Notes under the pieces: model-generated | What the model saw: only the letters and a program-made list of their open reading frames with translations | The model's database searches: none | What the model was told of the DNA's origin: nothing | In this document: piece by piece, positions 17,630-44,586 of the stretch | Layout: every line of letters starts with the position of its first letter | Numbering within the stretch: position 1 is the first letter of the stretch | Virus record (IMG/VR): IMGVR_UViG_3300031673_000122 | Source of the DNA: a virus | Length of the DNA: 44,586 nucleotides | Reading direction: 5' to 3' (one strand) | Position numbers and translations under genes: made by a program

Positions 17630-17642
17630 TTTGACAAGTTAA
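17629..17642. repeat. 14-nt direct repeat TTTTGACAAGTTAA, copy 2, starting at the discriminator position of the tRNA-like gene
   Basis: Exact match to 17133-17146. Confidence 0.6.
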
Positions 17643-17671
17643 AACCGGCGGCGGCATAGGTTAAACCGCCC
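17636..17671 (+). promoter_or_regulatory. Intergenic GC hairpin carrying two repeated motifs: AAGTTAAAACCGGCGGCGGC plus ATAGGTTAAACCGCCC
   Basis: GGCGG (17650-54) pairs with CCGCC (17666-70), and the loop is CATAGGTTAAA. The first motif recurs at 18301-18320 with 1 mismatch. The second recurs exactly at 17826-17841. It is followed by CTTTT and the RBS of a small ORF. Confidence 0.5.
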
Positions 17672-17689
17672 TTTTGAAAGGATTGAAAA

Positions 17690-17824
17690 ATGGATGAAGA
17701 TAAAGCGAGTGAAATATACTGGCAAGCGGTGCATCTTCTACAAGAAGTAATTGATAGCGGCCATAGAGGTAGTGAAGAGGACATTTTGGAAGAACTTGAA
17801 GAAGATTTAAAGCGGCGGCGATGA
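17690..17824 (+). CDS. 44-aa acidic helical protein, below the ORF-track cutoff
   Basis: Translated by hand: MDEDKASEIYWQAVHLLQEVIDSGHRGSEEDILEELEEDLKRRR*. The RBS is AAAGGATTGA. Confidence 0.45.
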   Translation: MDEDKASEIYWQAVHLLQEVIDSGHRGSEEDILEELEEDLKRRR

Positions 17825-18320: not shown

Positions 18321-18467
18321 TTGCAAAAATGAAAAAACGAAAAAGGGTTGGAATAGCGCTGCTGAACAAGGCTTGTAGCCTATAACTGCCGCCGATTTTT
18401 AGATGCGTAAAAGAGTATTTTTTAAGAGAAGGCTAAAATCTCAATAACATTGTGGTCAGGATTAAAA

Positions 18468-18983
18468 ATGCGAATCATAAAAACAATAATTAGTTGTATT
18501 GGCGTATTATTCGGATTTGTGCCGGACTGCGGCGGTGCAGTGCAAACTGAACATGATTGTTGGTTCGGTTTGGACAAGGAAATCTCGACTATCTATTCGG
18601 CAGCGATGCGTAACGGTTGCAAAGGCGTTGATTTTCTGCTGCTCTGTGCAATCAGAAAAGCTGAGAACGGCGACAAGTTCCGTGAATTCGGGATTATCCA
18701 CCCGGCCTGCGAAGCGGCGATGGAAGCTGAACCGAACCGAACGATTGATATACAGGCAGGCAGGGCTGCGGCAACGATTATGAAAAATAGAAAGCGGTGG
18801 GCCGAGGCAGGGATGCCGGGTACGTTCATCGAATTTCTGGCCGATAAATATTGCCCAAAGGAGTGCGATACTGTCGGCAATTTGAATTGGAAAAGGAATG
18901 TAAAATTCTGGTTTAAGAAATTTAGTCTGCAACATCACCGAGAACCCCGAATTGCTGGAACAAAAAAAGTAATCAATGCCTGA
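18468..18983 (+). CDS. Signal-anchored protein with a possible lysozyme/transglycosylase-like domain; candidate SAR-type endolysin (tentative)
   Basis: ATG 18468; the track start 18450 is a TTG. The N-terminal hydrophobic segment is IIKTIISCIGVLFGFV. LLLCAIRKAENGDKFREFGI resembles the catalytic-Glu helix of SLT-like enzymes, but this is recollection only. Confidence 0.35.
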   Translation: MRIIKTIISCIGVLFGFVPDCGGAVQTEHDCWFGLDKEISTIYSAAMRNGCKGVDFLLLCAIRKAENGDKFREFGIIHPACEAAMEAEPNRTIDIQAGRAAATIMKNRKRWAEAGMPGTFIEFLADKYCPKECDTVGNLNWKRNVKFWFKKFSLQHHREPRIAGTKKVINA

Positions 18984-28747: not shown

Positions 28748-30847
28748 ATGAGCAAAAAAACAAAAGAGAACAATCTTATTCACACAACCCACGAGCCGCA
28801 CAAATTACCGTGCAAGATGTATAAATTTCTTTTATCAGCAGGTGTTTTTTGCTGGCCTGTTTTATATTTATTTAATCATGTTTTTACCATAAATGGCAAA
28901 TATACAACTATTGGTAACGATTTCATTGGACTGTACTACAAATACAAGATTTATTTATTAGCCCATCTTGCCAATTTCAATTTCCCGCTCTGGTCGCCGT
29001 CAGAAGGTGCTGGTTATCCCTTTTATGCCAATCCATTTACCCAAGCATTTTATCCTCTCAATCTGCTGCTGGTTGTCTGGTACAAAATCTCCGGCAGCTA
29101 TAGTCCTCTGGACCATCAAGTCTTTACGATTCTTGGACTCTCGATATTTGCACTTGGTCTTTTTATGTGGCTGCGGCTACTTAATAACAACATCAGGGCA
29201 GTTGTTTTTGCAGTTTTGGTTATGTCAATTAGTTTCAAGATGACAGAAATACTGAGATTTCCCAACGCCGTTCACACCGCTGCCTGGTATCCCTGGATTC
29301 TTTATACACTGACGAAAATAATGCTGAACCGGTCCCTGAAAAATACTGCAATGTGGGGAATACTCCTGACCGTTTTTATGATGTGTTTTTTCACCGGCGG
29401 TTATCCGTATTACATTTACTATGGCCTGTTTCTTTTCGGGCCGTATATACTCATCTTTTTCATCCGTAAGCTGCGTTTGCAATTTTTCGGCAACAGGCAG
29501 ATTCATTGGAGACGTGCGTTCACAATGCTAACAGTGGCGGTGGGGGTGGCATTATTGCTATGCGGTCCGTATTTTCTGGCGATAGGTCGTCTTATGGCTG
29601 AGACGGCTAATCGGGCCGGCAGGGATTTTTCTCATTCAACTTTGCATCTATTCACTCTTACAGATACCATCGGCTCACTTGTATATCCGCCCGCAGCTCA
29701 GGCCGAAGGCTGGTATTTCTTCAGCATAACAGCGCTTTTGATAATTGTATTGTATATGTTAAGCGGCAGAACAACACTGGGGGTTAAACTTTTCTTTGTT
29801 ATCTGGCTCGGCGTAATCACTTACATCAGCTACGGTCGCAATTCATATTTATTTATCCTGCTGTGGAAATTCATGCCAGGTTTTTCCTCTCTTCGTACCT
29901 GGCCGAGATTGAACATCATTCTTGTGCCGATTTTTGCCTGGATGTTGTCATTGGCCTGGGTGCATTTTGAATCCGCAGGGACACGGAAACGGCTCTCAAC
30001 AATTTTGATTATCGCAATGACCTATGCAGCTATTCTCGGTACTCAGCTTTATTTCTATCTCAACAAAATCCAGGATGCCTACTGGCCGACATACTTCAGG
30101 AACGTATTATCTCAGGACACAAAATTTATCTACTTCGGGGCAGTAGGATTTGTCGTTGTTTTGCTGTTTGTAATCTTTGGCCGAAAGTATACCCGATTCT
30201 TACCGGCTATGGTTGTGGTTGTGGTGCTTGCAGCAGCTATCGAGATGTGGCCTGTAGGTTCGCAGCAGTGGGCGGTCCCGGGCAAGAGGAATCATCAGCG
30301 TTTTCATCTTGATGCAGCAAGGCTAAACGAGGCTTCATTCAGCTTTCGCCGGACGGATTTTGAAAACACAATTGCACTGGGCCCGAGTTTCAGTGTCGGC
30401 GTGATAGATGATTGGTATCTCAGCCGATATATCAAATTCCTCAAGGAAACAGAAGGCCAGTTAGAAGCAAGAAGAATGTTGCTCGGTATCGAGGACGGGA
30501 CAAAGGTTTTCTTTTCCGCGTCCATAGAACATCCTACGATTGAATCATTCCTGGCCGATGCTCTGCGATACCGAAGTCTGGGTCGTATGCTGTCTTACAC
30601 CGGTGACGAGCTTCTATGGGAAATCCAGATACCGGTTGAGGGTTACTTGAGTTTCATTGATAATTGGTATCGGGGCTGGAAGGTCTTTGTTGACGACAAA
30701 GAAACTGAGATGGAATTGCTTTTTGGAACTTTCAAATCTGTTCACCTTGCGACAGGCCGGCACTGCATAAGATTCTCATATCAACCAACAATGTTCGCGG
30801 GGCGGGAACGGATGCCTGCCCTGCTTAAATATAAACGTAATTTTTGA
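28748..30847 (+). CDS. YfhO-type GT-C membrane glycosyltransferase
   Basis: ATG 28748; the track start 28706 is a TTG. 699 aa with many TM helices. It has the loop motif LWSPSEGAGYPFYANPFTQAFYPLNLL and the C-terminal domain DNWYRGWKVFVDDKE...GRHCIRFSYQP. Both are characteristic of YfhO-family proteins. Confidence 0.7.
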   Translation: MSKKTKENNLIHTTHEPHKLPCKMYKFLLSAGVFCWPVLYLFNHVFTINGKYTTIGNDFIGLYYKYKIYLLAHLANFNFPLWSPSEGAGYPFYANPFTQAFYPLNLLLVVWYKISGSYSPLDHQVFTILGLSIFALGLFMWLRLLNNNIRAVVFAVLVMSISFKMTEILRFPNAVHTAAWYPWILYTLTKIMLNRSLKNTAMWGILLTVFMMCFFTGGYPYYIYYGLFLFGPYILIFFIRKLRLQFFGNRQIHWRRAFTMLTVAVGVALLLCGPYFLAIGRLMAETANRAGRDFSHSTLHLFTLTDTIGSLVYPPAAQAEGWYFFSITALLIIVLYMLSGRTTLGVKLFFVIWLGVITYISYGRNSYLFILLWKFMPGFSSLRTWPRLNIILVPIFAWMLSLAWVHFESAGTRKRLSTILIIAMTYAAILGTQLYFYLNKIQDAYWPTYFRNVLSQDTKFIYFGAVGFVVVLLFVIFGRKYTRFLPAMVVVVVLAAAIEMWPVGSQQWAVPGKRNHQRFHLDAARLNEASFSFRRTDFENTIALGPSFSVGVIDDWYLSRYIKFLKETEGQLEARRMLLGIEDGTKVFFSASIEHPTIESFLADALRYRSLGRMLSYTGDELLWEIQIPVEGYLSFIDNWYRGWKVFVDDKETEMELLFGTFKSVHLATGRHCIRFSYQPTMFAGRERMPALLKYKRNF

Positions 30848-30869
30848 GAACAGAAAGGAGTAAAAAAGT

Positions 30870-31085
30870 ATGAGTAAATTATTACTGGAAGTACTGAAAG
30901 GGTTAATAGTGGCTATGTCGGCTTTGCTATCGCCCGAAAACGTCAGGAATGTTATCGACAAGGCTTTCGATTATGTAGAGAAAAAAGTTCTTGCCAGCGA
31001 CCCAACTTGGGACGAAGACATCCTCCTGCCGGTGCTCGCTGCTTTGCGGAAAGCGCTGGGTGTGCCGGATAATGATGTTACTTAA
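30870..31085 (+). CDS. Hypothetical small helical protein
   Basis: 71-aa ORF with RBS AAAGGAG. Confidence 0.5.
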   Translation: MSKLLLEVLKGLIVAMSALLSPENVRNVIDKAFDYVEKKVLASDPTWDEDILLPVLAALRKALGVPDNDVT

Positions 31086-31129
31086 GGAGTTGGAGCTACA
31101 ACAGAAGGCTCGCCAGATTAACGCGGTTC

Positions 31130-31168
31130 GGCCCCGTCTGGTACGGAAGCTGGGCGGGGCCTGTTTTT
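31130..31168 (+). terminator. Intrinsic terminator inside the envelope island
   Basis: GGCCCCG (31130-36) pairs with CGGGGCC (31155-61) and is followed by TGTTTTT. Confidence 0.6.
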
Positions 31169-31180
31169 GTGAAAGCAAAA

Positions 31181-31489
31181 ATGATTGACTTCTTAATTGA
31201 TATTTTCAAAGACAGCGTTGTTGATGACTGGCGATGGGCCTTAGTTGCCCTGACCGGCAACGTATTCTTTTTTCTGAGGTTCTTTGTACAATGGCTCTAC
31301 AGTGAGCGAAAAGGCAAATCCTGTGTTCCCGGAGCCTTCTGGATTCTGTCGCTAATCGGCAGCTCTTTCATAATCGCTTACGCAATCCATATTCGCAACT
31401 TTATGATACTTTTTGCCATCTTACTGGCAGTACCGATTTATGCGAGAAACTTATTTTTAATGAGAGAAAAAAATAATGTGGGAATATAA
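31181..31489 (+). CDS. Lipid-A-biosynthesis N-terminal (LAB_N) domain membrane protein
   Basis: ATG 31181; the track start is a GTG. FFLRFFVQWLYSERKGKSCVPGAFWILSLIGSSFIIAYAI matches the LAB_N consensus (RF..QW..SE+..+S..P..FW..S..G). Confidence 0.7.
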   Translation: MIDFLIDIFKDSVVDDWRWALVALTGNVFFFLRFFVQWLYSERKGKSCVPGAFWILSLIGSSFIIAYAIHIRNFMILFAILLAVPIYARNLFLMREKNNVGI

Positions 31490-32144
31490 ACAATACCATC
31501 AGCACAAAAGCATAGGCAGACTTGACCGATTTATCCTGAAGCGGAGAGACCGAGCCACGTTCAATATGATAGCCAAATTCATCGTCTGCAAGTCAGTCCT
31601 TGAGATTGGACCGGGCAGATGTACTTACGGTCTGTTGTGCAAAGATAAAAGCATCGCTTACACTGCAATAGAGGCCAGCAGCATAGGTATAGAATGTGCC
31701 AGAAAACTCGGTCTTAATGTATACAAGGCAGTATTTCCCGATTGGGAAAGGCTCCGACTTCTAAGAGGGTTTGATGTATTTATGGCCCGGTCTGTTTTGG
31801 AGCACGTAAGAGATACGGTCCATGCAAACGACTTTATCGAAACTGCCAAACGATGTTTGAGACCCGGCGGAGTCATGTTCATCGAGGCCCCGGACATTCG
31901 TTTCTGGAAGTGGTTGTACTGGGGTTCGGACTATGGCCACAACTACGTATGCAGTCTGGAGCGGATGAAACAATTGATGCAGGAGTACGACCTTGAGATA
32001 TTACAGTGTGGTATGCGGTCACAGTTTATCAATAATCCGTTCGACAGGATATGTTACTGGCTGAGTTTTCTGCCTTTTAGTTCAAAGATTAAGACCAGTC
32101 TGCTGCCAGGTGCCTATGTAATAGCCCGAAAGAATATCTCATAA
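31476..32144 (+). CDS. Class I SAM-dependent methyltransferase
   Basis: Motif I is VLEIGPGRCTYG. GGVMFIEAPD lies downstream. Confidence 0.65.
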   Translation: MWEYKQYHQHKSIGRLDRFILKRRDRATFNMIAKFIVCKSVLEIGPGRCTYGLLCKDKSIAYTAIEASSIGIECARKLGLNVYKAVFPDWERLRLLRGFDVFMARSVLEHVRDTVHANDFIETAKRCLRPGGVMFIEAPDIRFWKWLYWGSDYGHNYVCSLERMKQLMQEYDLEILQCGMRSQFINNPFDRICYWLSFLPFSSKIKTSLLPGAYVIARKNIS

Positions 32145-32162
32145 TAGATTTGAGGTGAAATT

Positions 32163-32405
32163 ATGAAACATAAAAAAGGTGATTGGGTTATTGTTCAGTC
32201 ATTCGCTCGATTATTATCTATCAAAAAACCAGAACATTATACCTGCTGTCTGGAAATGGCATCGGTCCTAAGCGAACGTAAAGTCAAGATAAAGGTTGTC
32301 GGGCCAGATTATTACTTTGTCCGTTTACCCTGGCATTTGAGATTGTGCAGGTCGGAAAAAACAGGATTTCCATATTATTTAACAGATAATATGCTCGAAG
32401 ATTGA
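32163..32405 (+). CDS. Hypothetical small basic protein
   Basis: 80-aa ORF with RBS GAGGTGA. Confidence 0.5.
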   Translation: MKHKKGDWVIVQSFARLLSIKKPEHYTCCLEMASVLSERKVKIKVVGPDYYFVRLPWHLRLCRSEKTGFPYYLTDNMLED

Positions 32406-32413
32406 GGTGAGTT

Positions 32414-32620
32414 ATGGCCATTGGTGGATTAGCGTGGTGGGAAGTTTTCAAAAACTTTTTCAAGGGTGTGTGGGAAAGTTGGCTGGACTACAGACGCAGA
32501 CAGGCTTTGCGAAAAGAAAAAGAACAGGAAGCAAAAACAGAGTACGAAGAAGCCAAGAAAAAGGGCGATGCCTCTGATTTGCTGAATAGCTTCGAAAAAG
32601 GCAAAGATAATAGGGAGTAA
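32414..32620 (+). CDS. Small protein with a hydrophobic/amphipathic N-terminus and a Lys/Glu-rich tail (i-spanin-like architecture; tentative)
   Basis: 68 aa. AIGGLAWWEVFKNFFKGVW is followed by RRRQALRKEKEQEAKTEYEEAKKK. The RBS is GAGGTGAG. Confidence 0.45.
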   Translation: MAIGGLAWWEVFKNFFKGVWESWLDYRRRQALRKEKEQEAKTEYEEAKKKGDASDLLNSFEKGKDNRE

Positions 32621-32624
32621 GAAA

Positions 32625-32978
32625 ATGCGGAAACATATCATAATATCAATTCTGCTGCTTTTTTGTGCTGGCTGCGGCAGGCCGACAGTAAAATTATACA
32701 ATCTCAATCCTGACAGGCTCTTTTATCTACCTGCCGGAACTTTGATTGACTGGCGTAATGTGCCGGATAAAGACTTGCCAAATGACCTGAAACAATATGC
32801 CAAACGAATCCTCGATGTTGACCCGAATGCAGCTGAACTCGAAACAAAGACAAGGATTTTGCAATATCGAGGTCCCTTTATATGTGATGAATTGATGGAT
32901 ATTATTAATACCAAAGTAACAGAGGAAAATCTGACATTAACATTAACAGAAAAGATATTTAAGAAGGTAGGACTATGA
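32625..32978 (+). CDS. Lipoprotein (o-spanin-like position; tentative)
   Basis: The signal peptide plus lipobox is MRKHIIISILLLFCAG|C. Confidence 0.6.
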   Translation: MRKHIIISILLLFCAGCGRPTVKLYNLNPDRLFYLPAGTLIDWRNVPDKDLPNDLKQYAKRILDVDPNAAELETKTRILQYRGPFICDELMDIINTKVTEENLTLTLTEKIFKKVGL

Positions 32979-33334
32979 AAAAAGCACTTATTATTTTGGC
33001 GATAACGGCAGTGGCCTGGATCGGCTTCGATATTTACCTGGCCTGTTCGGGCGATGGCACTATCAGTCAGGCTATGAAGTATCTCGGCCAGCGATGCTCG
33101 ACTTTCCCGATGATTATGGGGATTCTAATCGGCCACTTTTTCTTCACGATTCCGGTCGTGTTGTTTCGCAGTATCAGGAATATTTTGCTTATCTGCTTTT
33201 TCGTTTGGTTCGGCTGGGACTTGTTCAACGGGATTATCGGTAACTGGTCAGTGGCCGGCTCGGGTTCACCGAGCTGGATAATGGCGTTAATCGGAATAGG
33301 CGTTGGTCGGCTGCTATGGCCGCAAGGAGAGTAA
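32975..33334 (+). CDS. Four-TM small membrane protein (GtrA-sized or holin-like)
   Basis: 119 aa with four hydrophobic stretches and an ATGA overlap with the upstream gene. Confidence 0.5.
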   Translation: MKKALIILAITAVAWIGFDIYLACSGDGTISQAMKYLGQRCSTFPMIMGILIGHFFFTIPVVLFRSIRNILLICFFVWFGWDLFNGIIGNWSVAGSGSPSWIMALIGIGVGRLLWPQGE

Positions 33335-33337
33335 AAA

Positions 33338-34054
33338 ATGAAATGGAAATCTTATTGTGTTTTGTTGTGGATAATCATTGTTTTGGGCGGTCTGTATATA
33401 GCTGCCTTTTTAGGTAAAGCCAAACAGACACGGAGCATAGGCACTCTTACTAATGTTGAGGCTATTGGTACGATAGAAGAACCCATAGATTTTACTGTTC
33501 CGCTCTGCGTAGCATACAGTATTTCGATTGATTCTAATCAAGTTAGTGACTTTCGTAATGGATGTCAGAGTAATTGTGATTATTACACTGATATTAGAAT
33601 CATACTTGACGGCGTAACAAGAGATTTCACCCTTGACGATTTCAAACAGAAGTTGGGATTCGAAGAGGTGGATTGCAATATGATATGCAGAACCGAGATT
33701 ATCATAGACCCAAATTCTGAACTCGTTAGAAGTCTAAATTTACTTTATGACCCCAATTTCTATGAAGTATCTTACGATTTGGAGGACGACTTGGCGGACA
33801 TAGCAATTACAATTGACGATAGTCACAAGATAGCATTCTCCACAGAGGCCGTAAGCTGTGAAATGACTGTTTGGGTAAGTGATTTTAGCGTGATACTTGA
33901 CCTGACGAAGATGTTGTTATTGACAAAGGACGAGATGCGGGACTTTGCTTTATTCGTATCGGCAGTGAGTTATGGTGGGATGTGTGATGAGTATTACAAG
34001 GCCGTATTGACCTTAGTTTCACCAAAACTATTTAAGAATGGGCAGGGTGATTAA
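33338..34054 (+). CDS. N-terminally membrane-anchored acidic protein
   Basis: 238 aa. The TM is YCVLLWIIIVLGGLYIAAFL. The remainder is Asp/Glu-rich. Confidence 0.5.
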   Translation: MKWKSYCVLLWIIIVLGGLYIAAFLGKAKQTRSIGTLTNVEAIGTIEEPIDFTVPLCVAYSISIDSNQVSDFRNGCQSNCDYYTDIRIILDGVTRDFTLDDFKQKLGFEEVDCNMICRTEIIIDPNSELVRSLNLLYDPNFYEVSYDLEDDLADIAITIDDSHKIAFSTEAVSCEMTVWVSDFSVILDLTKMLLLTKDEMRDFALFVSAVSYGGMCDEYYKAVLTLVSPKLFKNGQGD

Positions 34055-34732
34055 ATGAGAAACGGATTACTCAAAAAAGTGTATCTTGGTTGGTATCGGC
34101 AGATGCGGGATTGTCTCTATGCAAGTGATAATTATAGCAGTCCTCTTTCTCGATTACGGAAACACCGTGATGAAGTCATAGTCGAGCTGGGCGAAGGCGG
34201 TAACGGCTGGGTCAAAGAGATTATGCCCCTTGTTTTTACCTCAGACGTTCAGGAAGTCGGGACGGATATGTGCTTTTCAGCGATGGATATGATATTCGGG
34301 GCAGAGACGATAGATGCGTTCCTTCTGATAAATGTCCTGCATCATTTAAGACCGGAAACATTTTTTAACGAGGCTCTACGCTGCCTGAAGCCGGGCGGCA
34401 AAATCCTGATAATAGAACCGGCCAATACACGATGGTCAAGATTGATTTATAGATTCCACTTCGAATCCTTCAGGCCGGATTTGTACTGGGAGCCGGTCAA
34501 TAATGCGATGGCCTGGATACTCTTTTTCCGGGATGTTAAGTATTTCAAAAAACTATACCCGCAGCTTGAAATAATCAACATTAAAACTCATACATCGCTG
34601 GCATATCTGCTGGCAGGCGGGCATAGCTATCCTCAACTTGTGCCAACTTTCCTGTATCCTGTCATAAAGTGGCTTGAAAAAATCTTGCCGTTAGGCGGAA
34701 TGTTCTATACGATAGTTTTGGAGAAGGAATGA
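34055..34732 (+). CDS. SAM-dependent methyltransferase (type 11/23-like)
   Basis: VIVELGEGGNG, LINVLHHL and LKPGGKILIIEP. Confidence 0.6.
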   Translation: MRNGLLKKVYLGWYRQMRDCLYASDNYSSPLSRLRKHRDEVIVELGEGGNGWVKEIMPLVFTSDVQEVGTDMCFSAMDMIFGAETIDAFLLINVLHHLRPETFFNEALRCLKPGGKILIIEPANTRWSRLIYRFHFESFRPDLYWEPVNNAMAWILFFRDVKYFKKLYPQLEIINIKTHTSLAYLLAGGHSYPQLVPTFLYPVIKWLEKILPLGGMFYTIVLEKE

Positions 34733-34848
34733 CTAACCGCATGGCCCTGATTATCGCTTTTGGGATAGTTGCTATGTGGCTGGTTCTTATAGCGATGGGA
34801 ATTGCGATTGTCGTTCTGGACGATTATCTTTTGAATACTGGTTTTTAA
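34729..34848 (+). CDS. 39-aa single-TM peptide, below the ORF-track cutoff
   Basis: Translated by hand: MTNRMALIIAFGIVAMWLVLIAMGIAIVVLDDYLLNTGF*. The start is an ATGA overlap. Confidence 0.4.
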   Translation: MTNRMALIIAFGIVAMWLVLIAMGIAIVVLDDYLLNTGF

Positions 34849-34866
34849 CAAAAGGAGTTAGGTACT

Positions 34867-35109
34867 ATGGAAATTTTTGAAGCAATCTATGTAATAAGTG
34901 TAATAAGTGCAATGATTTTACCAATATTTCTGGGAATTTTGGATGAAATTGCTCAGAGGCGTGGTGTAGTAGCCGGGGGTGGGGATATTGTTTATTTTTA
35001 TTGCCTCTTTTTCTGGGTTACTGGTCCAATCGCTGTAATTGTGTACTTATGTTGTATAGCTTGGGTAGTAACGAAACTCATTAAGGGAAAGAAATTGCAA
35101 GATGACTGA
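34867..35109 (+). CDS. Two-TM small membrane protein
   Basis: 80 aa with RBS AAAGGAG. Confidence 0.5.
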   Translation: MEIFEAIYVISVISAMILPIFLGILDEIAQRRGVVAGGGDIVYFYCLFFWVTGPIAVIVYLCCIAWVVTKLIKGKKLQDD

Positions 35110-35146: not shown

Positions 35147-35404
35147 ATGCCAGAAGAGTTGATAAAACCAAGTAAAGACCACTGGATAGTTATATCTGCC
35201 GTCCTTATCGTCGAACGGGAAAAAGCAGGATTTTTGTCACAAGATGCTTTTGCTACCGCCTGTGGCTGGTCTCAGCAGTTTCAAAGTCAAATCGAGGACA
35301 TTAGCAAACCAATCGAACATCCAGGGGAACATAAAATACGCATTACGATTGCCGAAAAAATCTGTGAAGTGCTATATGGACTCAACAATAAAATTACGGG
35401 ATAA
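35147..35404 (+). CDS. XRE/Cro-type helix-turn-helix protein
   Basis: LSQDAFATACGWSQQFQSQIE fits the HTH_XRE pattern. Confidence 0.5.
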   Translation: MPEELIKPSKDHWIVISAVLIVEREKAGFLSQDAFATACGWSQQFQSQIEDISKPIEHPGEHKIRITIAEKICEVLYGLNNKITG

Positions 35405-35666
35405 ATATACAGAAGCCGATGAAATAAGCAGACAGTTCGAATCACGAAAGAATTTTGAAAGAGGAAAACTTTTTGGCCGACTTGCAAATGAACATGAACA
35501 GCGGATAAAGGCCCATATAAAACGGATAAAGGCCGAAGAAAGATTTATGGAAGCTCGTGGCATAAAACCCTGGATGGCAGGTTCGGCAGAGAAATTCGAT
35601 AAACTTATGCTCCGGCGGCCAGCCCACAAGGAGGCCAGCCGCAATTGGACGGACGAAGAACACTAA
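35376..35666 (+). CDS. Hypothetical basic helical protein
   Basis: ATG 35376 is in frame within track ORF 35244..35666. The longer form would overlap most of the HTH gene. Confidence 0.4.
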   Translation: MDSTIKLRDKYTEADEISRQFESRKNFERGKLFGRLANEHEQRIKAHIKRIKAEERFMEARGIKPWMAGSAEKFDKLMLRRPAHKEASRNWTDEEH

Positions 35667-36139: not shown

Positions 36140-36176
36140 TAGACATTTCTTGAGCTATTGCCGTAATATAAAGGTA

Positions 36177-36605
36177 ATGGCTAAGAAAGCTAAAGCGAAA
36201 AAGAAGGCCAGGGGCGTTGGCAGACCAAAAAAAACACTGGACGGTTTACCTAAGAACTGGAAAGAAGAAGTATTAAAACTCGCCAAAAACGGGGGTAGCG
36301 ATGTCGAGATAAGAGTTGCTTTAGGCTGTATATCACAGGACTTATGGGAAAGATTTATTGCTGAAGAGGAAGAATTTTCCCTAACCATAAAAAAGGCTCA
36401 TTTGCTTTGCCAGTGCTGGTGGGAGTCACAAGGCAGAAAAGGAATAAGGTCGAAAGTTTTCCAGACCGGCTTATGGACTATGAATATGAAAAATCGGTTT
36501 GGTTGGACAGATAAAACAGATGTCCAGCATGATGTAACCGATGCTTTGGCTGGATTGATGAGAGAAATAAGTGGTAGCAATAAAGGATTGCCAATTAAAG
36601 AGTGA
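36177..36605 (+). CDS. terS: Terminase small subunit
   Basis: ATG 36177; the track start is a TTG. The protein has a Lys-rich N-terminus, then a helix-turn-helix-like LAKNGGSDVEIRVALGCISQDLWERF. It lies directly upstream of and overlaps terL. Confidence 0.65.
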   Translation: MAKKAKAKKKARGVGRPKKTLDGLPKNWKEEVLKLAKNGGSDVEIRVALGCISQDLWERFIAEEEEFSLTIKKAHLLCQCWWESQGRKGIRSKVFQTGLWTMNMKNRFGWTDKTDVQHDVTDALAGLMREISGSNKGLPIKE

Positions 36606-38151
36606 GTTAGAGCCTAAGCTCAAAGACCCCTTGTGGCGGCTCAATAACCTGTATTGGATTATTGATGAGCATAGCAATCGGGTTAAGTTCAAGATGCGTC
36701 CTGTACAGCGTGAGCTGTGGGATGATATGTGGTTTTGGAATGTTATCCTGAAAAGCCGACAGCATGGTTTTACTACAGAAATTGACTTGATAGGCTTGGA
36801 TTTAGCCTTATGGAATGACAATATCGAAGCTGCAATCATAGCACATACCCTCAAAGACGTTCAGCACATATTCGCAACGAAAATCAAATATCCATACGAT
36901 AATCTACCGCAAGCCATCAAGGAACGCTGCCCTGCCCTTAAAAGTGATGGTAATGTTCTACATCTTGCAAACAATAGCTGGATTAGAGTAGCACTGTCTT
37001 TGCGGTCAAGTACGCTTAATTTCCTGCATGTATCAGAACACGGAAAGTTATGTGCTAAATACCCCCTTAAAGCAGAAGAACTTAAAACAGGCACGATGCC
37101 AGCTTTGCATGAAGGCAGCTACTTATTTGTTGAAAGCACTGCCGAAGGTGGAGCTGGTGATTTCTATGAGTTATGTACGCACTCACAATCGGACACGGCC
37201 AGAGAAAAACAGGGCAAAAAACTAAGCAAAATGCAAGCTCGTTTCCACTTTTTCCCCTGGTTCGAGGATGACAAAAATCAGACAAACCCAACAGGAGTCG
37301 AGACATCAGATGAACTTAACCGCTATTTCGAAGAACTAAGGGAAAAGCACGACATAACACTTAATGAACGGCAAAAAGCCTGGTACGCTCTGAAAAAATA
37401 CGGCCCTATGGGTTTAGGTTCCAAGATGAAGCGGGAACATCCGAGCTTTTCGGCAGAGGCTTTCGAGCAATCTGTTGAAGGTGCGGTTTATGCTGACGAG
37501 ATGGAGAAGGTACGAAACGAGGGCAGGATTCGGTTTGTGCCACATATTGAAGGTGCACCCGTTTACACTTTTTGGGATATTGGTATCGGTAATCATACTG
37601 CTATTGTTTTTGCACAATTCACCGACAACAAGAAAAATGTAATTGACTATCTTGAAGATTCAGGCCGAGGGGTTACTTACTATGCTAAAATTCTGTCAGA
37701 GAAGGAGTATATTTACGAGACACACTATTTACCTCACGATGTCCAGCAACGTGAAAAAAGCGATGGCATAGTGCTTTTAGATAAAATTGAGTCATTGCTG
37801 GGACTGCACAAAGTTAAAAAAGTACCCCGACCGGACCAGAAAGTTGATGGCCTCGAAGCGGTTAGAGAAATTTTCAAATCCTGTTTCTTCGATGCCAAAA
37901 AGACCAAGAGACTCATAGATTGCCTGAGTTATTATCGTTATGAATGGGATGAACATACTACAAGGTATAGCGATAAGCCTGTCCATGATTGGTCAAGTGA
38001 TGGGGCAGATGCGTTTCAGACTATGGCTTTGGCTTGTAGGTTTATGAAGATTGGCGGCAAGTACATCGGCTTCACTGAGCCTGAAGATAACAATCCTTAC
38101 GATAGATATGACAAGCAAGCCTATGAACCTATGAGTTTAGGGAGATTGTGA
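36571..38151 (+). CDS. terL: Terminase large subunit
   Basis: 526 aa. The Walker-A-like segment is NVILKSRQHGFTT, in an ATPase-plus-nuclease-sized protein. The start is GTG 36571; no in-frame ATG lies upstream of the conserved N-terminus. Confidence 0.8.
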   Translation: MVAIKDCQLKSELEPKLKDPLWRLNNLYWIIDEHSNRVKFKMRPVQRELWDDMWFWNVILKSRQHGFTTEIDLIGLDLALWNDNIEAAIIAHTLKDVQHIFATKIKYPYDNLPQAIKERCPALKSDGNVLHLANNSWIRVALSLRSSTLNFLHVSEHGKLCAKYPLKAEELKTGTMPALHEGSYLFVESTAEGGAGDFYELCTHSQSDTAREKQGKKLSKMQARFHFFPWFEDDKNQTNPTGVETSDELNRYFEELREKHDITLNERQKAWYALKKYGPMGLGSKMKREHPSFSAEAFEQSVEGAVYADEMEKVRNEGRIRFVPHIEGAPVYTFWDIGIGNHTAIVFAQFTDNKKNVIDYLEDSGRGVTYYAKILSEKEYIYETHYLPHDVQQREKSDGIVLLDKIESLLGLHKVKKVPRPDQKVDGLEAVREIFKSCFFDAKKTKRLIDCLSYYRYEWDEHTTRYSDKPVHDWSSDGADAFQTMALACRFMKIGGKYIGFTEPEDNNPYDRYDKQAYEPMSLGRL

Positions 38152-38462: not shown

Positions 38463-40160
38463 ATGACTAAGACCCCCAAAAACATCATAGATGAACAGGG
38501 CAGGCTCGAAACGATACGCAAGCCGTATGAAGCCCTGAAGCAAATATCTACCGCTTTGAGCTACCCGGGCCGGTCTGACCAGTGGGATTATCGAGATTCC
38601 GTCCTCGGCAGCCAGGCAGGAAAGAGCAATACCAAAGTCCGTAAAGTGTACGATGCTACCGCTTTTCGCGGGCTGGATATATGGTCAAACGGACTTATCG
38701 GCCATTATATGCCGAAAGAGATAAACTGGTTCGCCTTGCAGATGGCAGAACGAAAACTAAGAGATTCAAAGAATGTCCGCAGATGGCTGCAGGAGACGGA
38801 CGAACACCTCAGATACGTTCTCAATCAAAGCAATTATTACGAGCAGAAACTTGTAACTATCAAAGACGCAGCAGCCCCGGGCGATGCGTACCTGTTCATC
38901 GATGAAGATTCGGATAGTGGCAAGTTAATGACAATGGCACCACATCCGAGGGAGTTCTGGGTCAGGCGGGACTGGTGGGGCCGTGTCGTAGGTATACACC
39001 ACAAGTTCAGTAGCCGAACAGTAAGGGATGTTGTGGACGAGTTCGGTAAACAGGCTTTGAGTCAGACCCAGATTCAAAGTTTGGAAAATAGCCCTGATAC
39101 CCCAGTCGATATAATTCACGGCATATACAAGAACAAGGATTACGAGCCGGACAAAATCGGCGTAAAGAACATGCCCTGGCAGCATTACTATGTCAATGTT
39201 ACCTCTTCTGGTGATAATGTCAGCGGCATTATGATGAGGGAGACGGGGACACCGACCTTGAATCCTATACCCTGGGCACTTGGCCGGCCATCACACGAGG
39301 CTTACGGCAGGGGTATGGTATCCCAGATGCTGATTGAGATACTGACCTGCAATTTGATGTCAAAAGATATGCTGTTGGCTTCACAGTTAGGGGCAAGACC
39401 GCCAATGGCAATGTCATCGGCTCTCAAACACAAATTGGATATGGGAGCTGGTGCGGTTAATTTCGTTGGTACTCGTGAGATGCAGGGCGTAAAGATGGGC
39501 GACCTGATAGCACGGTTGATAGATAGTAGCGGCTATCCGTTCGGGATTGATAATCATCAACGCTGGCAGGCGATGGTAGAGGAGCGGTTCGGAGTTCCGT
39601 TATTCTTGGGTCTAAATGCCGATTCGACATCAAAGACACTCGGCGAAGCTCGTATGAGACAGGCTGAAAGGGCGACCTTGATGGCTCCGTTTTTGGGGAC
39701 GTTAGGCACTACGACAGACCTTGAGTTCGACAGGATATACTCAATCGAATTAGATGCTGGCAGGGCACCGGAACCGCCACAAGAGGTTTTGGAGGCCCAG
39801 AACGGCAGAATAGATATCCAGTACATAGGCCCGCTTTCGCAAATGCTGAAGCAATACTATGAGACAGGAAACCTGCTGACTACGATTGCATATATCAGGG
39901 AGGCTTTAGCGGTGGCACCTGATTCTAATGTCGTTATCGAAGGCGATGAACTGATGCGAAAGATACTGCAATCAGGCAATACTCCTGAAGATATTATCCT
40001 GTCGAAAGATGAAGTATTGGAGATTAGGGCTATAGCAGCACAGCAGCAGGCAGAGGACAGGCAGATGGCTATTATGGCTCAGGCTGCGAAGGCAGTCCCT
40101 GATTTGAGTAAGAAAATCGAAGCAGACAGCGTTTTGAGTAATATGAGGGATGCGGCGTAA
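38463..40160 (+). CDS. Portal protein (podovirus head-to-tail connector type)
   Basis: 565 aa. It is the first large gene after terL, with RBS AAGGAG. Size and position fit a portal. Confidence 0.7.
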   Translation: MTKTPKNIIDEQGRLETIRKPYEALKQISTALSYPGRSDQWDYRDSVLGSQAGKSNTKVRKVYDATAFRGLDIWSNGLIGHYMPKEINWFALQMAERKLRDSKNVRRWLQETDEHLRYVLNQSNYYEQKLVTIKDAAAPGDAYLFIDEDSDSGKLMTMAPHPREFWVRRDWWGRVVGIHHKFSSRTVRDVVDEFGKQALSQTQIQSLENSPDTPVDIIHGIYKNKDYEPDKIGVKNMPWQHYYVNVTSSGDNVSGIMMRETGTPTLNPIPWALGRPSHEAYGRGMVSQMLIEILTCNLMSKDMLLASQLGARPPMAMSSALKHKLDMGAGAVNFVGTREMQGVKMGDLIARLIDSSGYPFGIDNHQRWQAMVEERFGVPLFLGLNADSTSKTLGEARMRQAERATLMAPFLGTLGTTTDLEFDRIYSIELDAGRAPEPPQEVLEAQNGRIDIQYIGPLSQMLKQYYETGNLLTTIAYIREALAVAPDSNVVIEGDELMRKILQSGNTPEDIILSKDEVLEIRAIAAQQQAEDRQMAIMAQAAKAVPDLSKKIEADSVLSNMRDAA

Positions 40161-40756: not shown

Positions 40757-41039
40757 CATATTCGCCAACTGGTTAAAACAAGATGATGAAGGCAAAAGAG
40801 TGGCCCACACTTTTCGCTCTGTTTTTAGTACGGAAGAGGGCAAATTCGTTCTGCAAATTATGCTCAACGAGCTAAAGTTTCTCGAACAGTGTAAAAACGA
40901 GCAGGATATGGCCTTGAATAACTTCGCCAAGACTCTGGTGATGACTGTTTTCTGGAACGAAGAAACTGGAACCGTAGATAACAATAGGCTATTTAACTTT
41001 ATCAGAAAAATGATAGCGAAATACAGGAGAACAAAATGA
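40749..41039 (+). CDS. Hypothetical head-module protein
   Basis: 96-aa ORF overlapping both neighbours. Confidence 0.5.
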   Translation: MDDIFANWLKQDDEGKRVAHTFRSVFSTEEGKFVLQIMLNELKFLEQCKNEQDMALNNFAKTLVMTVFWNEETGTVDNNRLFNFIRKMIAKYRRTK

Positions 41040-41809
41040 TTGACGAAAATGGAGCTTTTACAGAAAAGTTTACGACAAAACTGCCGGAGATGTTAGGGGA
41101 TAACTTCTACAACGACCCCGACACAAAACAGCAGCCAACGAAGATGTTCGATAATATCAAGGACATGAAAACGCTGGTAAACGCCGTTGCAAACGGCCAG
41201 CGTACCATCAGTAAGGGCGAAGCCGCTTTCGCTGAAAAGACCAAAGGCATGGTCAAGATACCCAGCGAAAAGGCGACACCAGAAGAAATCGCCACCTATC
41301 GCAAGGCTATGAACGTGCCGGAAACGGTGGATGGCTACGAGCTGTCTGTACCTGACGGCGATGATGCCGCAGGGTATAAGGCTGTAGCTGATGTGGTCAG
41401 GACGGCGGCACTTCAGGCCGGAGTCCCGAAAAACGCTCTTTCAACTGTCTGGGATACTGTCATAACGGCTTTAGACAAACAGGCTAAAGACCTTGAGGCT
41501 AAAGGTCTGGAAATGATGAAGACCGATGAAGAGGCCCAAAAAGCAATACACAAGGAAAACTATCCGGCCTTCGTTAAGGCCGGTGATGATACCTTGGCCA
41601 AATTGAAAGCCGGACCAGAGCTTACAAAGATTCTCGAAACATTCGGTATCAAAAATCATCCTGCCATAAGAAATATACTGCACGAGATTTCACCTTTGAT
41701 TCTGGCAGGTAAGACCTTCGGCGGCGATGCACCCGCCGGCGGACAAACTGGCGAGGGCTGGCCTATGACGTATAAGTATGACCCAAACACAGGAAAGCCA
41801 ATCGAGTAG
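41036..41809 (+). CDS. Scaffolding protein
   Basis: 257 aa, acidic and helical. It is the last gene before the major capsid gene. Confidence 0.55.
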   Translation: MIDENGAFTEKFTTKLPEMLGDNFYNDPDTKQQPTKMFDNIKDMKTLVNAVANGQRTISKGEAAFAEKTKGMVKIPSEKATPEEIATYRKAMNVPETVDGYELSVPDGDDAAGYKAVADVVRTAALQAGVPKNALSTVWDTVITALDKQAKDLEAKGLEMMKTDEEAQKAIHKENYPAFVKAGDDTLAKLKAGPELTKILETFGIKNHPAIRNILHEISPLILAGKTFGGDAPAGGQTGEGWPMTYKYDPNTGKPIE

Positions 41810-41999: not shown

Positions 42000-43031
42000 A
42001 TGGGTACACAATATATCAACACCAAGTATACCTTGCTGGACAGGGCGAAAGAGACCTCTGACGGTAAAACCGTCCTGCCCCTAATCAAGGTGATGAATCA
42101 GCTTGTGGACGATTTCTTCAACGATATACCATTCGTTGAAGCAAACATGGGCCTGAAACACAGGCTTGTCCGTGATACGGGAATGGTAGCAAGCACAAAC
42201 CGTACATTCTACAAGGGCGTAGTTTCCTCGAAGCTCAATAAGCAGGTCATTTATGAAGATGTCATGCTCAAAGAGCGGAGACGTGAAATTGACGAAGATG
42301 AAATCGATACCCTCGCCAACCCGGGCGTAAAGTTACGCCAGGAAGACGAAGCACATGCCCGCAAACTCGGCGAAGATGTAGTCAGTTCCTTTATCAATGG
42401 TACACAAGCTGACGGCGGCGAGCACATTAACGGTTTACTCCAAAGATTGGATGCCCTGAATCCCACCGGATTAAACAATGTTCGGTCAAACGGGTATACC
42501 GGTGCTGGCTCTGTGACTACGTCAATACTTCTTGTCGAATGGAACACGGACGAAACAGGCGGAGCCTACGGCATCTATCCGCCCGGCTGGATGAAGAATA
42601 CCGCACTGGGTGTCGCGATACACGACAAGGGCAAAGAGCCTTGTCTTGAAGTTGAAACAGATGTGAACGCCAAGTATTACGCCTATGTCGCTCAGTTCAA
42701 GGCGTGGCTGGGCCTTGCTGTCGGCAATAACAGGAAGATTGGCCGTCTTGCCAATATCAACCCTACTATGAACGGGACAAATTCCTTCAGTGATGGCGCT
42801 GTTGAAAACATAATCCAGCTTATCAACGACGGCTCCTTTGATGTGTCCCGAACGAGAATGTATGTCAACAGGTCTATCGCTTCCCAGATGGACGTCTACG
42901 CCCTGAAGAAAAACAATATCCTGTGGCCGACAACGGAAATTTTCGGCAGACGGGTAAAGGTTTTCCAGGACATTCCTGTCCGCGTAATTGATACGACCGT
43001 TCTCACAAATACCCAAGCCGTTGTAGCTTAA
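42000..43031 (+). CDS. Major capsid protein
   Basis: 343 aa with strong RBS AAGGAG. It follows the scaffold gene and is preceded by a long structured leader. Confidence 0.75.
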   Translation: MGTQYINTKYTLLDRAKETSDGKTVLPLIKVMNQLVDDFFNDIPFVEANMGLKHRLVRDTGMVASTNRTFYKGVVSSKLNKQVIYEDVMLKERRREIDEDEIDTLANPGVKLRQEDEAHARKLGEDVVSSFINGTQADGGEHINGLLQRLDALNPTGLNNVRSNGYTGAGSVTTSILLVEWNTDETGGAYGIYPPGWMKNTALGVAIHDKGKEPCLEVETDVNAKYYAYVAQFKAWLGLAVGNNRKIGRLANINPTMNGTNSFSDGAVENIIQLINDGSFDVSRTRMYVNRSIASQMDVYALKKNNILWPTTEIFGRRVKVFQDIPVRVIDTTVLTNTQAVVA

Positions 43032-43606: not shown

Positions 43607-44586
43607 ATGAAAAAGTTAATTTTTCTCTTGATAATGCTGATTATGGCTACTTCGGCTTTCGGCTACACCTCGGCATTTGATATTAGATGGGGGGAGACGG
43701 ATACTTATTCCGATTTTCCGAGTAACACGCTCCGAAAGTGCCTTGAAGGTATGGAAGGCAGGTTAGGCGGTCAGATTGGCACGGGTAATATCTACTATGT
43801 CGATAGTAGTGCGACTCAAGGCGATGGTACGAGCTGGGACAAGGCTAAAATCACTCTCCAGGCGGCCATTGACCTCTGTACTGCCGATAACGGCGATGTG
43901 ATTCTTGTCGCTCAGGGACACGCCGAATCCGACTACACTGGTGGTGCTGCTATGTGGAATGCTGATTGTAACGGGATTGTGATTTGGGGTTGTGGCGAAG
44001 GCACACTTGCTCCGACATTTACATACGGTATCGCCGATGCAAATGTAATTGCAAGTGCTGACAATGTAACGATATCCAACCTTAGATTACTGGCAGGCGT
44101 AACGGAGGTGACGACAGGTATATATGTCACGGGCAATAACTTTACAATGATTGACTGCGTTGCACCTGAGCCGAATACCTCAACTTATGAATTTGACAAG
44201 TTCATCGTTACGTCAGCCGGTGCTGATGACCCTGCAATAAAAGGCTGCACAATTTACAGCAGGCTTGCAACAGGAGCTACCTCGGCAATCGACTTTGCAG
44301 ATGTCAACAGACCTGTTGTTTACGGCTGTACGATTGTCGGTGAGTATTCCTCGGCCCCTGTATGGAGCGACAATGTCAGTCTGGGTGCCTTAATCAAAGG
44401 AAACACTATCCAAAACCTTACCTCGGGCGAGTTTGCAGTCGAGTTTACAGCGGCTACAACGGGTCTGGTTGAGGATAATGTTCTGATTGCCGATACAGTG
44501 CTCAAAATCCTCGATGCAGGCTCTATGTTTGAGTCACGAAACACCCTGTCTACGACTGCCGATACAGATGGTCTGCCTAACTGGGT
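43607..44586 (+). CDS. Tailspike/depolymerase-like right-handed beta-helix protein, N-terminal part. It continues through the junction to nt 797.
   Basis: ATG 43607; I translated the frame codon by codon and it is open to the window end. The signal-like N-terminus is MKKLIFLLIMLIMATSAFG|YT. GNIYYVDSSATQGDGTSWDKAKITLQAAIDLCTADNGDVILVAQGH is a pectate-lyase-fold cap pattern. Confidence 0.75.
   Translation, partial: MKKLIFLLIMLIMATSAFGYTSAFDIRWGETDTYSDFPSNTLRKCLEGMEGRLGGQIGTGNIYYVDSSATQGDGTSWDKAKITLQAAIDLCTADNGDVILVAQGHAESDYTGGAAMWNADCNGIVIWGCGEGTLAPTFTYGIADANVIASADNVTISNLRLLAGVTEVTTGIYVTGNNFTMIDCVAPEPNTSTYEFDKFIVTSAGADDPAIKGCTIYSRLATGATSAIDFADVNRPVVYGCTIVGEYSSAPVWSDNVSLGALIKGNTIQNLTSGEFAVEFTAATTGLVEDNVLIADTVLKILDAGSMFESRNTLSTTADTDGLPNW
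44460..44586. repeat. Terminal overlap copy 2, identical to nt 1-127
   Basis: Same exact 127-nt string as the window start. Confidence 0.95.

Follow-up and report, generated by a model that had tools for sequence, protein, structure and literature searches.

The 44,586-nt window studied here (the whole stretch of DNA held as IMG/VR record IMGVR_UViG_3300031673_000122) is the genome of a phage whose genes all lie on the + strand, and a block of 12 open reading frames (ORFs) at 28748-35109 contains four genes that tie to a single cellular surface-glycan cassette. These encode a polytopic glycosyltransferase of the GT-C fold, a small membrane protein with a LAB_N domain, and two class I methyltransferases dependent on S-adenosylmethionine (SAM). 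Our analysis leans toward the view that these auxiliary genes rework the surface glycan of the infected cell, using polyprenyl-phosphate-linked sugar provided by the host and acting after synthesis of the donor; we regard this as somewhat likely. The GT-C gene is homologous to genes of planctomycete chromosomes, where it has a conserved place directly after a family 2 glycosyltransferase (GT2), and the phage has no GT2 of its own. The first-pass annotation, made from the letters of the sequence, had seen a surface-glycan module in the block as a whole; the comparisons support this for 4 of the 12 genes, and the remaining eight are not linked to glycans. The elements that carry the argument are the following.

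28748-30847, + strand: GT-C-fold glycosyltransferase, 699 aa, polytopic, YfhO-like, host-derived
31130-31171, + strand: GC-rich hairpin and T-run, intrinsic-terminator-like, at the boundary of the GT-C unit and the LAB_N unit
31181-31489, + strand: LAB_N-domain membrane protein, 102 aa (Pfam LAB_N)
31476-32144, + strand: class I SAM methyltransferase, 222 aa (Pfam Methyltransf_23)
34055-34732, + strand: class I SAM methyltransferase, 225 aa (Pfam Methyltransf_11)

The GT-C enzyme and its cellular cassette

The 699-aa protein has at least 11 hydrophobic segments between residues 22 and 505, followed by a beta-rich C-terminal domain (587-678), and its AlphaFold2 model (predicted local distance difference test, pLDDT, 64.9; predicted template-modelling score, pTM, 0.69) likewise combines a polytopic helical domain with a C-terminal beta domain. 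In a Foldseek search of this model against the PDB, the top 17 matches were all GT-C enzymes (ArnT, STT3, EmbC, AglB, DPY19, PglB, Pmt4 and EmbB), the best being ArnT (5f15, E = 1.1e-4, and 5ezm, E of ~2e-4; probability 1.00). The fold thus bears out the original assignment to GT-C, whereas the YfhO label that came with it is marginal. Pfam YfhO (PF09586) gives 21.9 bits against a gathering cut-off of 28.5, the match is confined to residues 642-683 (42 aligned; model positions 787-828 of 835), and the N-terminal membrane domain has no YfhO match. Similarly weak YfhO matches are found in 27 of the 29 family members (the phage protein and 26 of 28 relatives; best E = 4.9e-7), and NCBI names one relative “YfhO family protein”. 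A search of PDB sequences with a profile of the GT-C family returned no match. On the strength of its model, we describe the protein as a predicted GT-C-fold enzyme with a YfhO-like C-terminal domain, and not as a certified member of the YfhO family.

A homology search with this protein returned 471 relatives, the aligned examples being 54-74% identical to it. Many lie on chromosomal contigs of 100-600 kb (up to 617 kb) in metagenome-assembled genomes labelled Planctomycetota, Phycisphaerae or Sedimentisphaerales, and the taxonomic picture did not change in a scan that took one genome from each GTDB species. More distant relatives (33-45% identity) come from Anaerolineae (Leptolinea), Acidobacteriota and others. 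These sequences make a member of the Phycisphaerae/Sedimentisphaerales (Planctomycetota) the probable host. The phage copy keeps 148 of the 148 invariant columns in an alignment of the 29 family members and is therefore likely to be functional. The triplet N57-D58-F59, just after the first transmembrane (TM) segment, is invariant in all 29, and its putative placement in the active site falls in a region modelled at pLDDT < 50.

It is very improbable, in our estimation, that the genes are neutral host DNA recently captured by illegitimate recombination and devoid of any role in infection. Such an origin would fit the finding that the GT-C gene occurs in no related phage of IMG/VR (single-protein and family-alignment scans) or GenBank. 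Neither the DNA of the block nor the GT-C, LAB_N and 222-aa methyltransferase proteins (tblastn) matched any of 50,697 GenBank phage records, and the viral structures of BFVD gave no match to the GT-C model at E <= 0.001. However, even the closest cellular relative shares only 74% identity with the phage GT-C, which nevertheless retains every family-invariant residue; this argues for long residence under purifying selection. The ORFs are moreover all intact, tightly packed and co-oriented, and the LAB_N/methyltransferase pair described below has been kept in three otherwise unrelated phages. The GC content of the block (0.43), near the phage average (0.45) and somewhat below that of the host loci (0.47-0.49), speaks neither for nor against recent capture.

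In Sedimentisphaerales-type genomes, the YfhO-like gene lies within a large surface-polysaccharide cluster that also holds a GtrB-like GT2, a PMT_2 GT-C, GT4 enzymes, an asparagine synthase-like gene, several methyltransferases and a Wzx flippase. The core order is a methyltransferase-GT2 fusion (473 aa), a GT2-methyltransferase fusion (513 aa), the YfhO-like gene and a methyltransferase of 265 aa. A search of candidate host genomes for a partner GT2, suggested with the first-pass annotation, was therefore rewarded: a fusion of GT2 and methyltransferase, in one order or the other, ends directly upstream of the YfhO-like gene in 37 of the 43 loci with at least 48% identity to the phage GT-C and enough upstream flank. 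The closest relatives of the phage enzyme (74% and 72% identical) sit between a GT2-methyltransferase gene and housekeeping genes. The 265-aa methyltransferase follows directly downstream in 14 of 38 loci and is found somewhere in the flank in 22 of 47. For both GT2 domains of the cassette, the best PDB sequence match is dolichol-phosphate mannose synthase (DPMS; 5mlz, E = 6e-16 and 9e-9), and one of the two also matches ArnC and GtrB. By sequence, the cassette GT2s thus appear to be of the polyprenyl-phosphate type, loading sugar onto polyprenyl phosphate, and we infer that the phage GT-C would draw on a polyprenyl-phosphate-linked sugar donor. A separate branch of YfhO-like genes (L095, 7393-12073, and L096; loci and contigs are given by our own handles) is preceded by a methyltransferase, a 198-aa protein and a UbiA-family prenyltransferase, with no GT2 fusion, which hints at a different lipid-linked donor such as a polyprenyl-phosphate pentose.

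The partner that is so regular in the host cassette is missing from the phage, as had been claimed: among the ORFs of the genome long enough to hold one, none showed a GT2 domain in Pfam and PHROGs scans or in the precomputed Pfam assignments of a public copy of the contig. Nucleotides 1-127 and 44460-44586 of the window are identical, so that the contig closes as a circle of ~44,459 bp and represents a complete genome. The absence of a GT2, like that of an integrase discussed later, therefore applies to the complete genome.

The 225-aa methyltransferase provides a second link to the cassette. It matches Pfam Methyltransf_11 with 34.9 bits (cut-off 21.2), carries the glycine-rich motif ELGEGGNG, and is 40-50% identical to the ~265-aa cassette methyltransferase of 25 host loci, a homology that marks it as the usual partner of the GT-C. 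In the phage, ~3.2 kb of other genes lie between the two. The presence of two interleaved methyltransferases had at first been taken as unusual, a judgement we no longer share because the cellular cassette regularly includes methyltransferases, as domains and as separate genes.

LAB_N and the 222-aa methyltransferase

The identity and length first given for the 102-aa protein both stand. It matches Pfam LAB_N (PF07578) with 80.1 bits (cut-off 26.7; E = 1.3e-22) over model positions 3-70 of 71, nearly the full domain, and the ATG at 31181 (MIDFLID) from which its length is counted is conserved in its homologues in L099, L100 and L102. Its gene overlaps that of the 222-aa protein by 14 nt. The latter matches Pfam Methyltransf_23 with 52.9 bits (cut-off 27), contains the glycine-rich motif EIGPGRCTYG and has weak PDB matches to small-molecule methyltransferases, including NodS. 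Both methyltransferases of the block are thus, as originally read, of class I, with scores above the Pfam cut-offs and a glycine-rich motif, and both are of the small-molecule type.

Only three homologues of the 222-aa enzyme were found (58-62% identity), and all three adjoin a LAB_N gene whose product is 56-61% identical to that of the phage. A scan of IMG/VR for the methyltransferase gave no relative, and a metagenome scan gave only two SDBT01 contigs (the L099 phage contig again, and L102). L099 is a 40-kb phage contig with a P22-type portal and a capsid protein, in which the pair lies between a gene for a 620-aa protein and the adaptor gene. L100 is a 20.9-kb phage contig with a T7-type portal, in which the order is methyltransferase, LAB_N and a CapK-like gene. 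Beyond the pair, neither shares a protein with the window at E < 1e-4. The third homologue, L102, is a cell-like contig of 2.6 kb with the order GT2, LAB_N, methyltransferase and a fourth gene; the first of these shares 72% identity with the GT2 portion of the 473-aa host fusion, and the last shares 51% with a 309-aa gene from that host cluster. In L100, the CapK-like gene (11047-12369) encodes an adenylate-forming enzyme with homologues of 35-36% identity no more than 10 kb from the YfhO-like gene in three Planctomycetota loci, which implies that a second phage has sampled the same host cluster. As far as sequence comparison can tell, the LAB_N gene and its methyltransferase form a small mobile unit, derived from a variant form of this host pathway and acquired by no fewer than three unrelated phages (the window, L099 and L100). 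That it moves between such phages suggests that it has a selectable function in the infection.

All six non-phage LAB_N neighbourhoods that we examined (L008-10, L092, L098, L102, L103 and L104) adjoin a GT2 of the DPMS/GtrB type. In L008-10, L092, L102 and L104, short GT2s that lack helices (225-261 aa) stand directly upstream of LAB_N. In L098, a LAB_N 60% identical to that of the phage overlaps the end of a fusion-type GT2, which is 74% identical to the same cassette GT2 type and has a C-terminal hydrophobic tail, and in L103 LAB_N adjoins a full-length GtrB-like GT2 with two helices of its own. In L104, a PMT_2 GT-C follows directly downstream, giving the order GT2, LAB_N, GT-C. A position between the GT2 and the GT-C is that of GtrA in classical three-component systems. 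Two contigs that IMG/VR lists as viral add variations on the gene. L092 has a tandem double LAB_N at 1297-1935 (212 aa, two domain matches), what would be a SWEET-like full-length form, lying between its short GT2 and an NAD-dependent epimerase/dehydratase, and in L091, a phage contig, LAB_N (3296-3565) stands ~1.1 kb upstream of the large terminase gene, ahead of the packaging genes as in the window.

The AlphaFold2 model of the phage LAB_N protein (pLDDT 81.5) consists of an N-terminal helix and three long helices. The domain has been grouped in the PQ-loop/SWEET/MPDU1 superfamily, of which MPDU1 is required for all lumenal GT-C reactions that depend on dolichol-phosphate monosaccharides (PMC3281891). 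We therefore offer, as a tentative proposal that we think rather less likely than not to hold in full, that LAB_N is the third component of widespread bacterial periplasmic glycosylation systems, an MPDU1-like flippase or escort for polyprenyl-phosphate monosaccharides, and that phages have captured it repeatedly together with a methyltransferase (and, in the window, with a GT-C enzyme as well) to hijack the lipid-linked sugar pool of the host without a donor glycosyltransferase of their own.

A quite different role for the pair must be weighed here. LAB_N and the 222-aa enzyme might form a membrane-tethered methyltransferase that acts on another target (a lipid, a quinone or nucleic acid) in host takeover or counter-defence, with only an incidental link to glycans. 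The pair does move between phages in the absence of a glycosyltransferase (L099, L100), the methyltransferase has a weak UbiG match and a match to PADLOC mad2, part of a methylation-associated defence system (E = 3.8e-9), and the Foldseek search with LAB_N brought no significant match. The mad2 match, however, covers the methyltransferase core only and is probably a generic class I similarity. In the cell-like L102, furthermore, a DPMS-like GT2 flanks the pair on one side and a further gene of the host glycan cassette on the other, the pair of L100 is followed by the CapK-like gene with its homologues in host YfhO-like loci, and a GT2 of the polyprenyl-phosphate type adjoins LAB_N in all six non-phage contexts that we examined. 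We therefore consider a non-glycan target improbable, and a part in the handling of a glycan donor remains our preferred reading of the pair.

Composition of the block and its genome

The twelve ORFs first described are all present on the + strand, and independent public gene calls agree: on contigs of three separate samples, all 12 are called as genes and their order is unchanged. Every peptide motif quoted for them was found in the translations, and the block does lie directly upstream of the small and large terminase genes. What has not survived is its description as a single island. The block is a mosaic and not one cassette, and comparison of its sequences resolves what appear to be at least three units: the GT-C gene of the host cassette, the phage-mobile pair of LAB_N and methyltransferase, and the accessory methyltransferase of the cassette. 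Eight small ORFs with no homology link to glycans are interleaved with these.

30870-31085, + strand: 71-aa ORF, a publicly called gene; weak N-terminal hydrophobic stretch; no family match
32163-32405, + strand: 80-aa soluble ORF without a hydrophobic segment; no family match
32414-32620, + strand: 68-aa ORF with an amphipathic N-terminus and a charged tail; no family match
32625-32978, + strand: 117-aa protein with a signal peptide, an N-terminal hydrophobic segment and a lipobox-like LLFCAG|C; no family match
32975-33334, + strand: 119-aa multi-pass membrane protein (3-4 TM; three segments by hydropathy, a fourth by sequence reading)
33338-34054, + strand: 238-aa orphan with an N-terminal membrane anchor and an acidic, Cys-containing domain
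34729-34848, + strand: 39-aa single-TM mini-protein, a publicly called gene; hydropathy 2.83; no family match
34867-35109, + strand: 80-aa two-TM protein, holin-sized; two hydrophobic segments; no Pfam or PHROGs match

The internal terminator proposed earlier is present as a hairpin and T-run: a 13-bp stem with nine G-C pairs at 31130-31161 is followed by TGTTTTTGTG. A 12-bp GC-rich hairpin with a T-run, of unrelated sequence, occupies the same place before LAB_N in L099 (9690-9724), and in both phages with the order LAB_N then methyltransferase (the window and L099) the hairpin and T-run end 7-20 nt before the LAB_N start. The element might terminate transcription of the gene before it or else regulate the module.

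A strongly hydrophobic window (19 residues with a Kyte-Doolittle mean >= 1.6) occurs in 8 of the 12 block ORFs and in 9 of 53 elsewhere in the genome (Fisher p = 0.0013). The enrichment in membrane proteins seen at first reading is thus real, while the count of at least nine is not reached: it is 8 of 12, with the 71-aa ORF borderline and the 68-aa ORF only amphipathic. The candidate lipoprotein has kept its lipobox-like LLFCAG|C, which does not fit the strict PROSITE lipobox pattern. The supposed GtrA-sized protein with four TM segments has lost its comparison; the 119-aa protein shows three segments by hydropathy, and we rejected GtrA as its identity on finding neither GtrA nor any other credible Pfam match at E <= 0.1. 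GtrA (PF04138) was found in none of ten block proteins at that threshold and in neither of the two smallest ORFs at E <= 0.01. Likewise rejected was the idea that the 238-aa protein is a known enzyme: an exhaustive HMMER search against 1.84 billion representatives returned only its own fragment and 13 weak partial matches. More generally, the eight ORFs have no informative Pfam, PHROGs or NCBIfam match, the PHROGs and NCBIfam scans of the block giving only generic methyltransferase and LAB_N/LpxB matches. They have no homologue in any host glycan locus, and PADLOC gave no match for the six of them that were scanned.

Some of these small ORFs may encode lysis-related membrane proteins or be unrelated morons. 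In its stronger form, this explanation makes the small membrane ORFs (32414-34054, 34729-35109) lysis or membrane-remodelling gear and the glycan genes unrelated morons in a permissive spot, which would be compatible with the surface-glycan role that we favor. In T7-like podoviruses, holin and spanin genes sit upstream of the terminase genes, and the block is placed just so. It also has holin-sized proteins with one, two and three to four TM segments, a lipobox-like protein after a charged 68-aa ORF, and an anchored 238-aa protein; none of the eight ORFs has a homologue in the host glycan loci, and the block is demonstrably mosaic. On the other hand, lysozyme (endolysin), amidase, peptidase, holin and spanin families were not detected in the block by Pfam, PHROGs or NCBIfam, although small holin-like proteins can escape detection by sequence, and the 238-aa protein is an orphan. 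Other lysis candidates, with no Pfam or PHROGs match, lie elsewhere in the genome: a holin-like 101-aa protein that has a charged tail and, at its N-terminus, two hydrophobic helices (16147-16452), and a 177-aa protein whose N-terminus is hydrophobic and which contains a lysozyme-like “...RKAENGD...” (18450-18983). Such an account also leaves unexplained why four genes of one host pathway cluster within 6 kb, and we judge it unlikely, if still the most credible of the rival explanations.

The remainder of the complete circular genome is that of a podovirus-like phage. The nearest large terminases of GenBank phages are only ~42% identical, and scans of the window for tRNAs and Rfam families found none.

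8608-9087: T7 gp14-like internal virion protein (Pfam E = 1e-3, below cut-off)
~20-28 kb, + strand: replication and recombination genes
36150-36605, + strand: small terminase
36571-38151, + strand: large terminase
38463-40160, + strand: T7-type portal
41036-41809, + strand: protease
42000-43031, + strand: major capsid protein

The gp14-like protein is followed by proteins of 557 and 1696 aa (the whole stretch spanning 8608-15849), an arrangement that, together with the T7-type portal, suggests an ejection apparatus like that of T7. The ~1 kb that separates the virion-protein genes from the early/replication genes (16630-17690) has no ORF of more than 68 aa on either strand and may contain the genome ends or a regulatory region. 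The stretch between the block and the terminase genes (35147-35666) encodes an 85-aa protein with a weak helix-turn-helix match (35147-35404), overlapped in another frame by a 140-aa ORF (35244-35666); in the public calls the first is kept at 85 aa and the second is shortened to 96 aa. As first stated, no integrase is evident: Pfam and PHROGs scans of the ORFs of the closed 44.5-kb genome, which did not take in all of the small ORFs, found neither an integrase nor a recombinase.

A proposed mechanism and its relation to known systems

The phage gtrABC and CsbB/GtcA/YfhO systems provide precedent for the logic that we propose (PMC11194591, PMC5836110, PMC7389260, PMC8035078), and it is by analogy with them that we assign a likely donor, acceptor, role for LAB_N, methylated target and benefit to the phage; what the comparisons themselves show is the homology, the fold, the conserved gene order, the mosaic origin and the lack of a GT2. 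According to this scheme, a host GT2 of the DPMS/ArnC/GtrB type would attach sugar to polyprenyl phosphate on the cytoplasmic side of the membrane, a step for which the phage would rely on its host. The two phage methyltransferases would then act on the lipid-linked sugar or a related intermediate, presumably in the cytoplasm because SAM is not available in the periplasm. LAB_N, as a small three-helix membrane protein, may handle the lipid-linked donor, either as a GtrA-equivalent flippase or escort or as a membrane partner of the GT2 and the methyltransferase. Finally, the phage GT-C would transfer the sugar to a glycan at the outer face of the cytoplasmic membrane. The outcome would be a chemically altered surface glycan on infected cells, and the likeliest benefit would be that a glycan receptor is masked, which would exclude other phages and make the adsorption of progeny to infected cells and debris less wasteful.

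Several observations weigh against this reading. The case for it is built from sequences and models, and the sole basis of the host assignment is the similarity of the auxiliary genes themselves. The GT-C model is only of moderate quality (pLDDT 64.9), with TM-scores to ArnT of 0.37-0.49, and the YfhO match is both below threshold and limited to the C-terminal end. No LAB_N lies within 10 kb at any of 84 cellular YfhO-like loci, so that we dropped the idea that it belongs to the cellular YfhO-like cassette, and its juxtaposition with the GT-C in the phage is without a cellular counterpart in this sample. In L091, the neighbours of LAB_N are small phage ORFs, and no glycan gene lies close by. 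The Foldseek search with the LAB_N model gave a best E of 2.7, with no SemiSWEET among 30 weak matches. As for the 222-aa methyltransferase, its mad2 match counts on the same side, as does its lack of significant similarity to the methyltransferase domain of the host fusion (BLASTP E = 1); we accordingly abandoned the notion that it is the detached methyltransferase domain of the methyltransferase-GT2 protein. Eight of the 12 block ORFs have no glycan link at all. Moreover, in a phage without an integrase, serotype conversion in the style of a prophage is not an obvious setting, and a benefit within a lytic cycle is speculative.

Phage genes that redecorate surface glycans are well known from temperate enterobacterial phages, and to our knowledge they have always been seen as gtr-type or acetyltransferase cassettes. 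That phages carry genes altering the surface glycans of their hosts is thus not new. What is new is the composition found here, the host lineage, and the recurrence of the LAB_N and methyltransferase pair in unrelated phages, for none of which we found a description in the searchable literature. The same logic appears in a distant setting, in a probable planctomycete phage with no integrase found and no close relative in GenBank or IMG/VR, and its parts list differs: a GT-C without its GT2, two methyltransferases of a sugar pathway, and a LAB_N protein. The neighbourhoods reported here also give the LAB_N domain, whose name is misleading, a first functional context, beside GT2s of the DPMS/GtrB type and once between a GT2 and a GT-C. 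LAB_N is thereby a testable candidate for the handling of polyprenyl-phosphate sugars, a job for which many GT-C systems have no clear protein and which in eukaryotes likewise lacks a clear account for MPDU1. A literature search that combined lgmB with flippase found nothing. If this interpretation of LAB_N is correct, phages can alter surface-glycan chemistry during infection without encoding the glycosyltransferase that forms the donor.

The closest functional parallel is phage gtrABC (P22, Shigella SfV/SfX), which is likewise phage-borne and in which, as we propose for the window, a polytopic transferase uses a polyprenyl-phosphate donor to act on a surface glycan at the outer face. The glycan change that gtrABC brings about presumably blocks re-adsorption of phage (PMC11194591, PMC10883804). 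Unlike gtrABC phages, the phage of the window has neither a GtrB-type GT2 nor a GtrA-family protein, its transferase belongs to another, YfhO-like GT-C family from Planctomycetota, and it adds two methyltransferases and LAB_N; with no integrase found, it is also not obviously temperate. The CsbB/GtcA/YfhO (GtlA/GtlB) systems that act on lipoteichoic acid in Bacillus and Listeria follow the same logic of a GT2, a small membrane protein and a YfhO-type GT-C (PMC5836110, PMC7389260, PMC8035078). The window protein differs in falling below the YfhO cut-off and in having an unmatched N-terminal membrane domain, and the host GT2 partners differ in being fused to methyltransferase domains. Since the host here is probably a planctomycete, a teichoic acid acceptor cannot be assumed.

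In the Arn pathway, which adds aminoarabinose to lipid A, the undecaprenyl-phosphate sugar donor is modified in the cytoplasm before it is flipped. Among the ArnC/ArnE-ArnF/ArnT components, ArnT is the best structural match of the 699-aa protein and ArnC is among the best matches of a host cassette GT2, whereas the 699-aa protein is only ~14% identical to ArnT, and the phage has no flippase of the ArnE/F type (EamA/SMR). MPDU1 (Lec35) shares the PQ-loop/SWEET superfamily with LAB_N, and the LAB_N genes described here adjoin genes for a DPMS-like GT2 and a GT-C. MPDU1 is built of seven helices and LAB_N of one unit of three (in tandem in L092), and the likeness is one of family placement and neighbouring genes. 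Finally, the pentofuranose three-component systems (Kelly et al. 2024) combine a polyprenyl-phosphoribose synthase, a MATE flippase and a GT-C, and they indicate that GT-C systems can exchange, as modules, both the enzyme that makes the donor and the flippase (PMC11194591). The window phage differs from these in encoding no UbiA-type or phosphoribosyltransferase enzyme and no MATE flippase, and one branch of the YfhO-like family resembles them in that its genes adjoin a UbiA-family prenyltransferase and a methyltransferase in place of a GT2.

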